The position numbers were made by a program. Below are positions 55,157 to 61,100 of a stretch of DNA of 64,000 nucleotides, one piece after another (within the stretch, counting starts at the first letter, position 1; the number at the start of each line of letters is the position of its first letter). The stretch lies in assembly GCF_050920415.1 (NCBI RefSeq), contig NZ_CP169310.1. One strand, written 5' to 3'. The DNA comes from Escherichia coli (GTDB lineage Bacteria > Pseudomonadota > Gammaproteobacteria > Enterobacterales > Enterobacteriaceae).

Positions 55157-58100
55157 CAATGGAACAAATTGCTGCCCATTGTGAGTCATATTCGCCCTGA
55201 TTTTCCAGCACCATACGGGTCGCCCGCTGACGGACTTCGGGGGAAAACCAGTATTTTTAGTCATCCTGTTTACCTCCTTCTCAGAGAGTTTCATCTCCAG
55301 GATTCCCGGGACAGTTCACAGGAATTCTGCACTTTGATAATTTTGACGATGCCGTTAAGTGCTGCGCAGACCTGAATATTTCGTTCTTTGTGGATGTGGG
55401 AAACAAAAAGATGGTCTTCTGGTTTGTTCGTGTTGATGACGAAGGCTATCCGGAAATTGCCCGCTGTACGGAGTGGGTGTTTGCGACCATTCTTGCCGGT
55501 ATCAGCGCCGGCGGTATGTACTGTCCGGAGTGCGGCACGGTTCACTGGCCGGACGGAGTCCCCCCCCTTCTGATGCTTCCCTTTTTGCCGACATTTTTCA
55601 GCAGGGAAACCGCTTCGTCAGAGGGGGAAGTCGCAGTGGTCACCCGACTCAGTACTTTAGTGTCAACCTCCGGTATCTAGTTGCTTCTCCTCTGCTCTAT
55701 AAAATAAATCAACTATCATCACACTGCGAGTTCATATGTACCGCCAGTGACGCATCTGAAAAACGCGTCAATATGAGTTCACCGGAATATTACTTACCCC
55801 CGGAACATCACCAAAGGGAATGGAGGGAGAGGGGAGACTGATTTTGGCTAAAAGTTAATTGCCCATAAAATAATTTAACATTAAAATAACCATATTTTTT
55901 CATGTCTTAAGTTTAAGCTGGAGAAAAAATGGAGTTCAATCGGAGACAGTTCTTTCGAATCTGCGCGGGCGGTATGGCAGGAACAACTGTTGCATCTCTC
56001 GGATTCTTATCATCTTTTTCCGTTCACGCGGAAACCCGTCAATACAAACTCTTAAAAGCAAAAGAGACACGTAATAACTGCACATACTGCTCAGTAGGGT
56101 GCGGCATGCTGATGTACAGTCTTGGCGATACAGCTAAAAACGTCAAAGAAAGTATCTACCATATTGAGGGCGATCCGGATCATCCGGTGAGCCGTGGCTC
56201 GTTGTGTCCTAAAGGCGCTGGCGTGTTGGATTATATTCATAGTAAAAACCGTCTGCAGTATCCCGAATATCGAGCACCTGGGGCAGATAAATGGCAGCGT
56301 ATTAGCTGGGATGATGCGATTAATCGTATTGCCCGACTCATGAAAGATGATCGTGATGCCAACTTTATTGAGAAAAACGCACAGGGCGTTACTGTCAACC
56401 GATGGGCCACTACAGGCATGCTATGTTCCTCAGCGGCAAGCAATGAAACCGGGATCCTTGACGGTAAATTTGCTCGTGGACTAGGTATGGTCGCTATCGA
56501 CTGTCAAGCACGATTATGTCATGGCCCCACCGTTGCTGCTCTTGCACCAACATTTGGACGTGGTGCTATGACCAACAATTGGGTCGATATTAAAAATGCC
56601 AACGTAATACTTATTATGGGCGGCAATGCTGCTGAGGCACATCCGGTAGGCTTTAAATGGGTGGTCGAAGCGCAAACTAAAAACGACGCGACCGTGGTGG
56701 TGGTAGACCCGCGCTTTAACCGTAGCGCCGCCGTCGCCGATCTGTATGCGCCAATACGCGCTGGTTCAGACACAGTATTCCTGCTCGGAGTAATCCGTTA
56801 TCTGCTGAAGAACAACCGGGTGCAGCACGACTATGTGCGCCATTACACGAACGCCAGCCTTATAATACGTGATGACTATCAGTTCAATGACGGTCTGTTT
56901 AGCGGCTATGACGACAAGAAACGTCAGTATGATAAATCAAGTTGGTTCTATCAGCTTGACGAACAGGGTAATGCCCTGCGTGATGATTCATTGAATCACC
57001 CACGCTGCGTGTGGAATTTGTTGAAAACTCACGTCGAGCGTTATACGCCAGAAATGGTTAACCGACTGTGTGGGACTACCGTGGCGGATTTCAATCGAAT
57101 CTGCGAAATTCTCGCTAGTACCTGTGTTCCTGATCGCACCGCCACCATCCTGTACGCACTGGGTTGGACACACCACTCCAACGGGGCACAGATTATTCGC
57201 GCCGCTGCTATGCTCCAGTTACTACTGGGTAATATAGGTATGGCAGGCGGTGGTGTTAACGCCCTACGTGGCCATTCCAATATTCAGGGATATACCGATC
57301 TTGGCTTATTGTCGACAAACCTGCCGGGCTATATGCCGCTGCCGTCGGAAAAACAGCCAGACTATCAGACCTATATTTCGCAAATCACGCCACCTGCGTT
57401 AGGTGTGAATGAGGTCAATTACTGGAAAAATACTCCGAAATTCTTTGTTAGCATGATGAAAAGTTTCTGGGGCAATAATGCAACAGTGGAAAATAACTGG
57501 GGCTACGACTGGCTACCTAAATGGGATCGCCTGTATGACGTAATGACTCAGACCGAATTGATGCTCGAAGGGAAGCTCAATGGTTACATCGTTCAGGGAT
57601 TTAACCCACTGGCGGCGTTTCCCGATAAAAACAAATCAATTCGGGCACTTTCCAAACTGAAATATATGGTGGTTATCGATCCACTGGCCACTGAGTCTTC
57701 CAATTTTTGGCAGAATCATGGCGAGATGAACGATGTAACCCCGGCAGATATTCAGACCGAAGTTTTCCGCCTGCCATCTTCCTGCTTTGCTGAAGAAAAT
57801 GGTTCAATAGCTAACTCCGGGCGTTGGTTGCAGTGGCACTGGGCTGCGGCAGAACCACCAGGTGAAGCCTGGCATGACGGAAAGATCCTTGGCCACCTGT
57901 TTATGCGACTGCGTGAACTATATCAGCAGGAAGGCGGAGCGAATCCTCAACCCTTGTTGAATATTGCCTGGAATTATAAAGATCCATATGACCCACACCC
58001 AGAAGAGATTGCTCGTGAAGCAAATGGCCAGGCACTTGAAGACATTTATGATGATAAAGGCCAGCTTATTGCCCAGAATGGTCAGCAGCTCAGCAATTTT

Positions 58101-61100
58101 GCACAGTTACGCGATGACGGCTCTACCAGTTGTTTCTGCTGGGTCTACTGTGGAAGCTGGACAGAGCAAGGTAACCAGATGGCAAATCGTGATAATAGTG
58201 ATCCATATGGTTTGGGCTGCACACCGGGCTGGGCGTGGTCATGGCCAGCCAACCGCCGTATTCTCTACAATCGCGCTTCGGCAGATCCATCAGGAAAACC
58301 GTGGGATCCAAAACGAGCTCTGCTGCATTGGGATGGCAGAAAATGGCTCGGTATGGATGTCGCAGACTATGATAAGGCAGAACCGGGCAGCAGTGTTGGT
58401 CCGTTTATCATGAATCCGGAAGGTGTAGCGCGTTTGTTCTCCATCGACAAAATGAACGACGGGCCATTCCCGGAACATTACGAACCCATTGAGTCGCCTA
58501 TTGGTACTAACCCGCTGCACCCGGATGTTGTATCCAGCCCAGTTGCACGTATCTACAATGACGATATCACCAATATGGGTAAAGCGGATGCCTTCCCGTA
58601 CATCGCAACAACTTACTCCATTACGGAACTGTTTCGCCACTGGACCAAACATGCTCTGCTCAACGCCATCGTTCAACCCGATCAATTCATCGAAATCGGT
58701 GAGGCGCTGGCGAGCAAAAAAGGCATTAAAGCTGGTGATACGGTGAAAGTGATGTCGAAACGCGGCTTTATAAAAGCAAAGGCGGTGGTCACCAAACGTC
58801 TGCAAACGCTGATGATCGATGGTAAGCAGGTCGATACAATCGGTATTCCTTGTCACTGGGGCTTTGAAGGTGCTACACGCAAAGGGTTCCTCGCCAATAC
58901 GTTAACGCCATCGGTGGGTGATGCGAACTCGCAAACACCGGAGTATAAAGCATTTCTGGTCAACATAGAGCGAGCGTAAGGAAGGTGACTCATGGCTATG
59001 CAATCACAAGATATTATAAAACGCTCTGCGACGAACAACATCACGCCGCCGCCTCAGGCGCGGAATTACCGTGCAGAAGTGGCGAAACTAATTGATGTAA
59101 CCACCTGTATTGGGTGTAAAGGCTGTCAGGTAGCATGCTCAGAGTGGAACGATATTCGTGATGAAGTGGGTTACTGCAACGGAGTCTATGACAACCCGAC
59201 AGATCTCAGCGCTAAGTCTTGGACAGTGATGCGCTTTAGCGAAACCACCCAGAACGATAAGCTGGAATGGCTGATCCGCAAAGACGGTTGCATGCACTGC
59301 GCCGATCCTGGTTGTTTGAAAGCCTGTCCATCACCTGGAGCAATCATTCAGTATGCCAACGGGATTGTCGACTTTCAGTCCGAGCACTGCATTGGCTGTG
59401 GCTACTGCATTGCTGGCTGCCCATTCAATATTCCCCGGCTTAATCCTGAAGATAATCGGGTCTATAAATGTACGTTGTGCGTTGACCGGGTCAGCGTGGG
59501 TCAGGAACCTGCCTGCGTGAAAACTTGTCCGACCGGTGCTATCCAGTTTGGAACCAAAAAAGAGATGCTTAATGTAGCTGAAACTCGTGTGGCACAGTTG
59601 AAAAAACGTGGCTATGTCAACGCGGGTATTTACAACCCTCAAGGGATTGGCGGCACCCACGTGATGTATGTACTTCATCACGCGGATCAACCATCTCTTT
59701 ACCACAATCTGCCAGATGACCCCAAAATCGCCGTACCAGTAAACTTCTGGAAGGGGATTTTAAAACCACTCTCCGCAGCCGGATTTATCGCCACTTTTGC
59801 CGGGCTGATTTACCACTACGTGGGAGTAGGCCCAAACAAAGAGACGGATGATGATGAAAAGGAAAACGGTCATGAGTAAAAGCAACATGATTCTGCGTAC
59901 CAAATTTATCGACCGTGCTTGTCACTGGACGGTGGTAATAAGCTTCTTCCTGGTGTCACTTTCCGGTATTGCGCTTTTCTTCCCAACATTGCAATGGCTT
60001 ACTGAAACCTTCGGTACACCGCAAATGGGACGAATTCTACATCCGTTTATCGGAGTGATGATTTTCATCATGCTGATGTTTATGTTCGTTCGTTTTGTAT
60101 ACCACAATATTCCCGATAAACAGGATCTTCCTTGGATTAAAGGGATCGTTGATGTACTTAAAGGCAATGAGCATAACGTCGCTGATGTGGGGAAATACAA
60201 CGCAGGGCAGAAAATGATGTTTTGGAGCATCATGAGCCTGATTCTGGTATTACTGGTTACCGGCGTTATTATCTGGAGGCCATACTTTGCCCATTATTTC
60301 TCAATTAACATAGTTCGTTGGTGTTTGTTAATCCACGCGACAGCAGCTATTGTACTGATTCACGCCATTCTGATTCATATATACATGGCGTTTTGGGTAA
60401 AAGGTTCAATTAAAGGTATGATTGAAGGGAAAGTTAGTCGACGCTGGGCGAAGAAACACCATCCTCGCTGGTATCGTGAGGTTGAATCTACTGAAAAAGA
60501 AACAACGGAATTACAGTCTAAGTAAAAGATCACCTCCTAAGGAGCTGGTTTCAGATTGCAGACAAAGTCCTAAATAACTGCTCCTAATACCGCTACACTG
60601 TAAGCGTCAACGGAGCACCGTATTGACGCTTATTTATTGGTGAGAACTACGTTCCATGGCAGGAGTTCGTCAACACGGTTGGAGGGCCATTCCGGCAGTA
60701 CGCTCAGAATATGGCGCAGATACGCTTCCGGATCGATACCGTTCAGACGGCAGGTGTCGCGATCAGCCCGTACAGCAGTGCACCACGCTCGCCGCCGTGA
60801 TCGCTACCGAAGAACACGTAATTTTTCTTTCCGAGACAGACAGCACGAAGCGCTCTTTCCGCTGTGTTATTGTCCGCCTCCGCCAGACCGTCATCACTGT
60901 AATAACAGAGGACGTCCCACTGATTCAGTACATAGCTGAACGCTTCGCCCAGTCTGGAGTTTTTCGACAGCGTGCCATTCTTCTCCACCATCCATTCATG
61001 CAGCGACGTCAGTAACGCTTTGCTTCGCTGCTGCCTGACTGCTATTCACCGGAAAGGAGCCAGTCAGTGAATACCTAGTGAAATCGCTTCACCAGAGAAA

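Follow-up and report, generated by a model that had tools for sequence, protein, structure and literature searches.

All three formate dehydrogenases of Escherichia coli are selenocysteine (Sec)-dependent (PMC3636253, PMC5668559). Dickeya and Pectobacterium have no Sec machinery and carry cysteine (Cys) in all their formate dehydrogenases; their Fdn/Fdo-like enzymes, described in 2012, are orthologous to neither of the E. coli enzymes, lack NarL sites and are induced under oxygen limitation (PMC3349551). A Cys-type FdhF is active in Pectobacterium atrosepticum (PMC7384014), and Sec-to-Cys conversions are best documented in FdhA, at times with remnant structures that resemble a selenocysteine insertion sequence (SECIS) (PMC1794560). 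Here we describe a Cys-type fdnGHI operon in a stretch of 64,000 nt of E. coli DNA (contig NZ_CP169310.1 of assembly GCF_050920415.1), the whole of which we refer to as the window. We conclude that the operon is probably an intact, horizontally acquired Cys-type member of the formate dehydrogenase-N/formate dehydrogenase-O (Fdh-N/Fdh-O) family, of Citrobacter-like origin, carried on an IncF virulence plasmid that encodes heat-stable enterotoxin (STa) and enterohaemolysin.

The operon and its cysteine codon

Three co-linear open reading frames (ORFs) on the plus strand at 55929-60525 are intact fdnG, fdnH (fdxH) and fdnI, and RefSeq annotation already names the genes fdnG, fdxH and fdnI. The first, fdnG (55929-58979), encodes a catalytic (alpha) subunit of 1016 aa, identified with the model TIGR01553, with 1KQF chain A and by residue mapping. 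It is followed by fdnH/fdxH (58992-59879), which encodes a beta subunit of 295 aa (TIGR01582 and cysteine mapping), and by fdnI (59872-60525), which encodes a cytochrome b gamma subunit of 217 aa (NF007558 and residue mapping). Translation of fdnI could start at 59848 or 59872, and the ATG at 59872 is favoured by RefSeq and by alignment with E. coli FdnI; fdnH and fdnI overlap by 8 nt. The E. coli Fdh-N operon (FdnGHI; 1KQF/1KQG) has the same gene order with overlapping fdnH/fdnI, its subunits are 1015/294/217 aa long, and the plasmid proteins are 70% (FdnG), 85% (FdnH) and 81% (FdnI) identical to them.

Each of the three subunits exceeds the cut-off of its curated NCBIfam equivalog model. The alpha subunit matches TIGR01553 with 1542.9 bits (cut-off 814.2) over residues 4-1015, the beta subunit TIGR01582 with 467.4 bits (cut-off 334.7), and the gamma subunit NF007558 (FdnI) with 434.2 bits (cut-off 339), while its 265 bits against the FdoI model fall under the cut-off of 341. 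The closest solved structure is that of E. coli Fdh-N, PDB 1KQF chain A, with 1760 bits over residues 1-1016. Shared with the E. coli enzyme are the twin-arginine translocation (Tat) signal, with the motif RRQFF at alpha residues 5-9 in a segment, MEFNRRQFFRICAGGMAGTTVASLGF, that aligns with the signal peptide of E. coli FdnG and predicts export; the FS0 motif, with cysteines 51/54/58/93; and the Lys/His/Arg active site, where Lys95, His198 and Arg447 surround Cys197 in the alignment (FS0 to Arg447 in order, E. coli 50/53/57/92/94/196/197/446). In the beta subunit the 16 cluster cysteines of the four [4Fe-4S] centres are kept and 17 of the 17 E. coli FdnH cysteines are conserved, and the gamma subunit retains the four haem ligands His18/57/155/169 and the quinone-site residues Asn110/Gln113.

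The alpha subunit carries the motif AIDCQARLCHGPTVA, to which AVDNQARVUHGPTVA corresponds in E. coli. A MAFFT alignment that included FdnG of E. coli and an FdoG-like protein of Yersinia, both translated from DNA with the in-frame TGA, sets Cys197 (TGT, 56517-56519) exactly opposite Sec196 of both references, and no internal stop codon occurs in the whole 55929-58979 reading frame. A selenoprotein FdhA has UGA at the molybdenum (Mo)-ligand position; the codon found here is TGT, and the enzyme is not a selenoprotein. By residue mapping, the replacement of Sec by Cys is the sole catalytic-site change in a structurally complete Fdh-N-type enzyme, whose mechanism is well supported by homology. What the sequences show is how the proteins are related, the family they belong to, that the ligands are kept, where the module came from and where it ends, and that it is under purifying selection; formate:quinone oxidoreductase activity, expression and physiological benefit are what we infer.

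A second cysteine, Cys192 (56502-56504), lies five residues before the Mo ligand. Its presence goes together with the Cys type: [I/M/F]DC-QARL-C is what the majority of Cys-type loci have (exceptions to the DC pattern read IDT, TDS or VEN), and all 13 Sec-type loci read VDN-QARV-U, so that DN-QARV-U in E. coli FdnG stands against DC-QARL-C in the plasmid copy. This additional cysteine may have a redox or structural role.

Around the Cys codon (56514-56572, plus strand) the Rfam model SECIS_3 finds a match of 44.7 bits, which is below the gathering score of 63, and its stem contains non-canonical pairs. The true element of E. coli fdnG, run as a control, scores 84.3 bits, and chromosomal Cys-type genes score much as the plasmid copy does (Citrobacter 46.5, Pectobacterium 52.2, Pseudomonas putida 32.9 bits). 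Because of these two comparisons we read the match as coding homology or a decayed remnant common to the whole Cys-type clade, and not as a functional element. It was the Rfam model that decided the question, since hairpins formed in E. coli, Citrobacter and the plasmid copy alike when the 45-63 nt behind the Cys codon were simply folded, which was uninformative. An original prediction, made from the sequence alone, had proposed an operon co-linear with fdnGHI, encoding a Tat-signal alpha subunit, a beta subunit with four [4Fe-4S] clusters and a dihaem cytochrome b gamma subunit, with Cys in place of Sec and no SECIS; the ORFs, the alignment and the SECIS search agree with it on each of these points, the sub-threshold match being a decayed remnant.

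Origin, maintenance and distribution

In a large protein database the nearest relatives of the plasmid FdnG form a cluster of 1562 members that includes Citrobacter, the Klebsiella oxytoca complex, Kluyvera ascorbata and Pantoea ananatis, and further homologues occur in Kosakonia, Gibbsiella, Photorhabdus, Rahnella, Dickeya, Pectobacterium, Proteus, Azotobacter and Pseudomonas. Cys occupied the position in 18 of 18 sampled sequences. The loci that were fetched comprised 73 of the Cys type (TGC or TGT) and 13 of the Sec type (TGA); every species-representative locus of at least 71% identity was Cys-type, and the Sec type was seen only at 70.7% or below. In a neighbour-joining (NJ) tree, which is distance-based and carries no support values, the plasmid FdnG falls among the Cys-type proteins of Enterobacteriaceae, where Citrobacter youngae and another Citrobacter form its sister group, and lies well apart from the Sec-type FdnG/FdoG clade. 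The Cys-type clade is large and old, with chromosomal members in Citrobacter, Kluyvera, Kosakonia, the K. oxytoca complex, Dickeya, Pectobacterium, Photorhabdus, Proteus and Pseudomonas.

The chromosomal Cys-type fdnGHI operons of C. youngae, other Citrobacter, Kluyvera, Phytobacter, Kosakonia, the K. oxytoca complex and P. ananatis are orthologues of the plasmid operon (88-95% aa identity) and share its IDCQARLCHGP motif and gene order. More distant members of the same clade are the selenium-independent enzymes of Dickeya dadantii and P. atrosepticum (76-77% aa identity, QARLCHGP). For these bacteria, which lack the Sec machinery, a Cys enzyme is the only option, whereas the plasmid enzyme is added to a Sec-capable host. 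E. coli already makes three Sec-dependent formate dehydrogenases of its own.

Comparison by blastn with Citrobacter, Kluyvera and Kosakonia loci delimits a donor-derived module of 4.68 kb (55848-60527, plus strand), in which fdnGHI is preceded by 81 nt of its native leader and followed by 2 nt beyond the fdnI stop. At the nucleotide level, the match to Citrobacter chromosomes (92.9% and 92.0%) does not extend outside this interval. C. youngae is the nearest relative, at 95% aa and 92-93% nt identity. Since dS against Citrobacter is 0.23-0.36, the true donor is an unsampled lineage near C. youngae; the phylogeny that the original prediction had called for names a Citrobacter-like donor lineage, with C. 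youngae as its nearest sampled relative. The genes that flank the chromosomal relatives differ in each genus, and therefore the operon itself is a patchily distributed module. Immediately upstream of the module, a junction segment (55615-55847, plus strand) stands in place of the operon's native upstream control region. It resembles, at ~75%, non-coding DNA that many E. coli plasmids carry and had no match in any fetched donor-like locus, and we rejected it as donor DNA.

The operon bears the marks of purifying selection, with dN/dS against Citrobacter of 0.08 for FdnG, 0.05 for FdnH and 0.14 for FdnI. A sister copy in other E. coli assemblies (loci L091/L092) is 95.8% identical and has the same non-donor junctions at both ends, with the junction segment common to L091 from 55756 onward. 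FdnG differs from that of L091 by 121 nt but only 23 aa (dN/dS 0.063 at dS 0.158); this is the one reliable value of that comparison, as the FdnH and FdnI ratios are inflated by a small C-terminal indel in each that shifts the trimmed alignment. Because the two copies share their capture junctions, a ratio of 0.063 between them indicates that purifying selection has gone on ever since the single capture event, and speaks for continued function. The most divergent plasmid copy still has an intact operon, as do all copies examined.

Among 5426 complete E. coli genomes the operon region occurs in 17 (0.3%), at 99.4-100% identity and always on a plasmid; these carriers are conjugative IncFIA/IncFIB plasmids of ~140-240 kb. 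The window is matched best by pCFSAN004180G and sibling plasmids, conjugative replicons typed as IncFIA/IncFIB and MOBF. Relative to pCFSAN004180G the window lacks an IS421 insertion and has two 1-nt indels, and so represents a sibling plasmid and not the same record. The hosts are E. coli of hybrid type, Shiga toxin-producing as well as enterotoxigenic (STEC/ETEC), and Escherichia clade I strains, from cattle, food and patients. Ten PLSDB plasmids encode FdnG with 100% identity, and this very sequence, filed as a MULTISPECIES Escherichia protein, is on record from 863 contigs. Homologues are found on many chromids as well.

Formate dehydrogenase genes have reached plasmids in other cases. The 244 kb Providencia rettgeri plasmid pVCSW10.1 (NZ_CP082352.1) carries a Cys-type fdnG-fdxH-fdoI (QARLCHAP, TGC) without fdhD/fdhE, next to plasmid-type genes such as an antirestriction gene, and is an independent instance of a plasmid-borne selenium-free formate dehydrogenase; it differs in its 74% aa identity, its Morganellaceae sub-clade, and in being non-mobilizable and not a virulence plasmid. 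The conjugative E. coli plasmid pECTOK-001_1 (NZ_AP018396.1) carries E. coli's own selenoprotein operon, within a chromosomal segment narZ-yddG-fdnGHI(Sec, TGA)-adhP beside ISEcp1, and is thus a separate case of transfer to a plasmid. Another set of accessory genes for anaerobic respiration on a large E. coli plasmid is that for tetrathionate respiration, which the IncY plasmid of strain Fec10 carries (PMC7984374); its enzyme is a reductase and not a formate dehydrogenase. Two further "plasmid" fdnG matches, in Yersinia frederiksenii (NZ_MT039226.1) and Salmonella Infantis (NZ_CP019203.1), were rejected as parallels because they are Sec-type and have neighbourhoods typical of chromosomes (sodA/rhaM, fdhD, fdoGHI, fdhE, selAB). 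These records are probably chromosomal fragments or mis-assigned replicons. The original prediction had called a selenium-independent Fdh-N on a mobile element unusual. For the enzyme this does not hold, as the Cys type is widespread, annotated, described since 2012 and present on the P. rettgeri plasmid; it does hold for the location on an E. coli plasmid, given its presence in 0.3% of complete genomes.

Control region and rival explanations

The upstream region was compared in an alignment of 13 sequences, with the chromosomal loci L006 (7915-8000), L007, L010, L013, L014 and L044 set against window positions 55843-55923. In chromosomal relatives of several genera a dyad, AACCA-N11-TGGTT (ATAACCAT-N9-ATGGTTAT in Kosakonia), precedes a conserved TATAAT, and its centre lies ~41 nt upstream of the likely transcription start, which is a class II activator position. 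Closer to the gene, a 27-nt block of the 5′ untranslated region, TTTTCATGTCTTAAGTTTAAGCTGGAG (55897-55923, plus strand), which includes a GGAG Shine-Dalgarno sequence, is identical in 10 of the 13 aligned sequences and differs in Klebsiella sp. BIGb0407, Lelliottia and Pantoea allii. Neither the block nor the upstream elements had a match in Rfam. The leader block and the -10 element (as TAAAAT) are common to the plasmid copy and its chromosomal orthologues, but the latter keep the dyad, whereas in the IS-flanked plasmid copy its left arm is lost and its right arm mutated.

A promoter scan and the alignment with relatives yielded a candidate sigma-70 promoter, TTGCCC-17 nt-TAAAAT (55859-55887, plus strand). 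Its -10 matches the conserved TATAAT of the relatives, and the -35-like hexamer arose by substitutions in the right arm of the dyad; the sister copy L091 has TTGTCT at the -35 position. Expression is probably uncoupled from donor regulation because capture removed the native upstream operator. That the operon, freed of its native regulator, runs from this remodelled promoter is a proposal we make tentatively and regard as somewhat doubtful.

No FNR-like box with at least 8 of 10 matches lies within 300 nt of the fdnG ATG, in a scan that does pick up the boxes known from E. coli, Pectobacterium and Dickeya. E. coli fdnG has such a box, and Dickeya and Pectobacterium retain theirs at -74/-75, but the plasmid copy, which belongs to a different, old clade and is plasmid-borne, has none at the E. 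coli position and an unrelated upstream region. Some relatives (Kluyvera, Phytobacter, Pantoea) have FNR boxes at -94 and -137, though not consistently in Citrobacter. No strict NarL heptamer was found upstream, in a scan that is insensitive and also missed the known E. coli sites. The conserved dyad could not be shown to be an FNR site, nor does it convincingly fit the NarL 7-2-7, ModE, ArcA, IscR type-2 or LysR T-N11-A consensus. No regulator gene is linked to the operon, whose flanks differ in every genus compared. Fdh-N, as the nitrate-inducible isoenzyme, is characterized by anaerobic and nitrate induction that acts through an FNR box near -42.5 and NarL heptamers upstream. For the plasmid operon the "N" label is not supported, since capture truncated the native control region and the 300 nt before the ATG contain no FNR box.

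The simplest origin to consider for such genes in E. coli would be a recent TGA-to-TGT mutation in the host's own fdnGHI or fdoGHI, moved to a plasmid. Gene order and length are indeed those of fdnGHI, a sub-threshold SECIS_3 match sits at the Cys codon, and pECTOK-001_1 proves that genuine E. coli fdnGHI can reside on a plasmid. We nevertheless rejected this origin and give it next to no probability: the alignment, the identities and the NJ tree refute it, as the plasmid FdnG has an aa identity of only 70% with E. coli FdnG and of 68-69% with FdoG-type proteins, against 95% with the Citrobacter Cys-type, nests deep in a Cys-type clade that spans several families, and has a residual SECIS score like the 33-52 bits of chromosomal Cys-type genes. 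Just as remote is the notion that the plasmid location is an assembly artefact or that the segment is chromosomal. Some PLSDB "plasmids" with FdnG homologues are chromosomal fragments (the Y. frederiksenii and S. Infantis records and multi-megabase records), but in complete assemblies made independently in the USA, Japan, Korea, China and elsewhere, 17 in number, the segment always lies on a circular IncF plasmid with the same IS66 and polysaccharide neighbours, and no chromosomal copy above 80% identity was found in the 5426 genomes. These data refute the artefact and agree with the mobile-element location that was predicted, on a conjugative IncF plasmid, between insertion sequence (IS) remnants, and not chromosomal in this replicon.

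Several points weigh against our reading. The dyad is destroyed in the plasmid, its left arm being foreign DNA and its right arm TTGCC in place of TGGTT, and 81 nt of native leader are all that is left; if the dyad binds an essential activator, the operon could be poorly expressed. Promoter-like matches in the region are no more frequent than expected by chance, and the plasmid lineage shows a modest non-synonymous excess relative to Citrobacter. In addition, Sec-to-Cys replacement in E. coli FdhH greatly cuts activity, according to the account of Axley 1991 given in PMC7384014 and PMC3349551, though this handicap need not apply to natural Cys-type enzymes. The operon might accordingly be viewed as a silent passenger, intact but effectively unexpressed since the loss of its native promoter-operator, that hitch-hikes on a successful virulence plasmid, a view to which the shortened leader, the lost dyad, the lack of an FNR-like box in a scan that recovers known ones and the surrounding IS debris full of pseudogenes all lend weight. 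We consider it improbable, as an unexpressed operon would be expected to approach a dN/dS near 1 and to gather stops and frameshifts like its IS neighbours, so that the FdnG ratio of 0.063 at dS 0.158, among such frameshift-rich neighbours, is hard to reconcile with silence; moreover, every copy examined is intact, the -10 and leader are retained, and both plasmid lineages gained TTGnCn at -35. Less unlikely, though still not what we favour, is an active enzyme with an Fdh-O-like role, constitutive or serving aerobic transition, in formate oxidation linked to oxygen or inflammation instead of nitrate respiration. This role is compatible with the reading that we prefer, and it draws on the absence of an FNR box and a strict NarL heptamer upstream, on the lost native operator, and on the Dickeya and Pectobacterium Cys-type enzymes, which are assignable to neither Fdn nor Fdo and lack NarL sites (PMC3349551). 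On the other side, the gamma subunit passes the FdnI and not the FdoI equivalog cut-off, and the NarL scan, which missed the known E. coli sites, is insensitive.

Our preferred reading remains that of an acquired, complete Cys-type enzyme, for which we propose the following course. A module of 4.68 kb, containing fdnG, fdnH and fdnI only, would have moved from a Citrobacter-like chromosome into an IS-scarred accessory region of the plasmid. By homology to E. coli Fdh-N (1KQF), FdnG with FdnH attached would be exported through Tat, and formate would be oxidized in the periplasm at a Mo-bis(molybdopterin guanine dinucleotide) centre ligated by Cys197 and assisted by His198 and Arg447. Electrons would pass through five [4Fe-4S] clusters and then two b haems, and menaquinone would be reduced at the cytoplasmic face, giving a proton-motive redox loop. 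With an ordinary cysteine, encoded by TGT, as Mo ligand, the enzyme would be made without selA, selB, selC, selD, selenium or a SECIS. Maturation (FdhD, FdhE, synthesis of the molybdenum cofactor, Tat) would be left to chromosomal genes of the host because the module carries no maturation genes, and expression would possibly start from TTGCCC-17-TAAAAT. Selenium-independent formate respiration is a plausible gain for the host. E. coli normally has the Sec machinery, and therefore any benefit would be conditional.

Surroundings of the operon and significance

The IS flanks that had been predicted are real, with IS21-family, IS3/IS1203 and IS91 remnants upstream and IS66 remnants downstream. Features taken from the RefSeq annotation of the matching plasmid are given here with coordinates shifted by -1 to fit the window. 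Upstream, an IS3-family fragment (~52821-53305, minus strand) is followed by IS21-family istA (~53319-54319) and istB (54316-55087), both on the plus strand and both frameshifted pseudogenes with broken ORFs. Megablast against E. coli genomes then identified an IS21 terminus (55089-55161), an IS3/IS1203 fragment (~55157-55324) and an IS91-family 5′ fragment (~55322-55614), which is a second copy of ~50655-50952 and borders the junction segment. Capture by IS91 rolling-circle transposition is unsupported, as the IS91 piece stops not at a terminus but at a breakpoint inside the element, ~20 nt into its transposase gene. In two sibling plasmids, NZ_AP025742.1 (strain 10290) and NZ_AP025752.1 (HH154_1D), the match to the junction segment stops at ~55797 and continues elsewhere in the record; this points to an insertion or a rearrangement located ~130 nt ahead of the fdnG start, which could affect expression.

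Downstream of the operon, sequence inspection revealed IS66-type facing terminal repeats, GTAAGCGTCAA...TTGACGCTTA (60600-60632, minus strand), ~75 nt past the fdnI stop. They face each other 12 nt apart (GTAAGCGTCAA-CGGAGCACCGTA-TTGACGCTTA) and may be a scar left where two IS66 ends abutted or were nested; we take GTAAGCG to be the IS66 terminal motif. RefSeq annotates a C-terminal fragment of the IS66 transposase (60630-61045) and a fragment of an IS66 accessory protein (61078-61230), both on the minus strand. Just past these remnants, at 61432-64000 on the minus strand, a low-GC polysaccharide/export cluster starts with a nucleotide-sugar dehydrogenase and an alginate-export-family outer-membrane protein, and continues in the reference plasmid with kinases, an ABC transporter and glycosyltransferases. 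This cluster is linked to fdnGHI in every plasmid examined.

Besides the operon, the window holds parM, antirestriction genes, ehxCABD and two copies of sta1. The enterohaemolysin operon ehxCABD is complete (23296-30419, minus strand), and stands out from its surroundings by a markedly low GC content (33-40%) and a negative GC skew. Each sta1 copy, encoding STa, lies in a ~1.54-kb repeat whose two copies are ~99.1% identical (32199-33738, with sta1 at 32639-32857; 51273-52814, with sta1 at 51714-51932). The second sta1 copy is 4 kb upstream of fdnG, in a sta1/IS3/IS21 segment that sits in the window between two copies of the IS91-derived sequence. Plasmid pOkiPb01695_1 shares the block 55319-64000 at 99.2% without this segment, and has the IS91-derived sequence in a single copy. 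At 37789-43814 lies a gentisate-pathway cluster encoding 3-hydroxybenzoate 6-monooxygenase, maleylacetoacetate isomerase, a hydrolase of the FAH family, gentisate 1,2-dioxygenase, a transporter of the major facilitator superfamily (MFS) and a LysR regulator. The MFS-LysR end of this cluster (93% identical) also occurs ~8.5 kb upstream of the fdnGHI of L091, with a Pap/Mrp-type fimbrial operon in between, and the gentisate cluster and fdnGHI may once have been contiguous metabolic cargo.

Our literature search found no paper that mentions the operon, although the original p7v plasmid paper was outside its reach, and a study of clade-I plasmids lists virulence genes only, with no mention of the operon (PMC10100065). 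The enzyme class, the mode of transfer and the RefSeq annotation were known already, and the locus is a clean case of gene transfer that is incremental and not a new system. Formate oxidation by Fdh-N/Fdh-O is reported to favour enterobacterial gut fitness in Salmonella (PMC10470504). As a speculative extension that we would not ourselves bet on, the operon could be a niche-fitness module of STEC/ETEC and clade-I virulence plasmids, with a remodelled promoter and selenium-independent, possibly constitutive or oxygen-tolerant, formate oxidation. If so, it would work when selenium supply, UGA decoding or regulation limits the host's three selenoenzymes, as in the bovine gut or the inflamed intestine, and the conserved Cys192 could add a redox-protective feature specific to the Cys-type clade. 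A Cys-type Fdh-N already in E. coli would also be a convenient natural system in which to compare catalysis by Sec and by Cys within a single host, and from which to engineer formate/CO2 enzymes free of selenium. For the pathogens themselves, a conjugative virulence plasmid with a selenium-independent isoenzyme could widen the conditions under which they use formate, and would show metabolic cargo travelling together with the toxins STa and Ehx.

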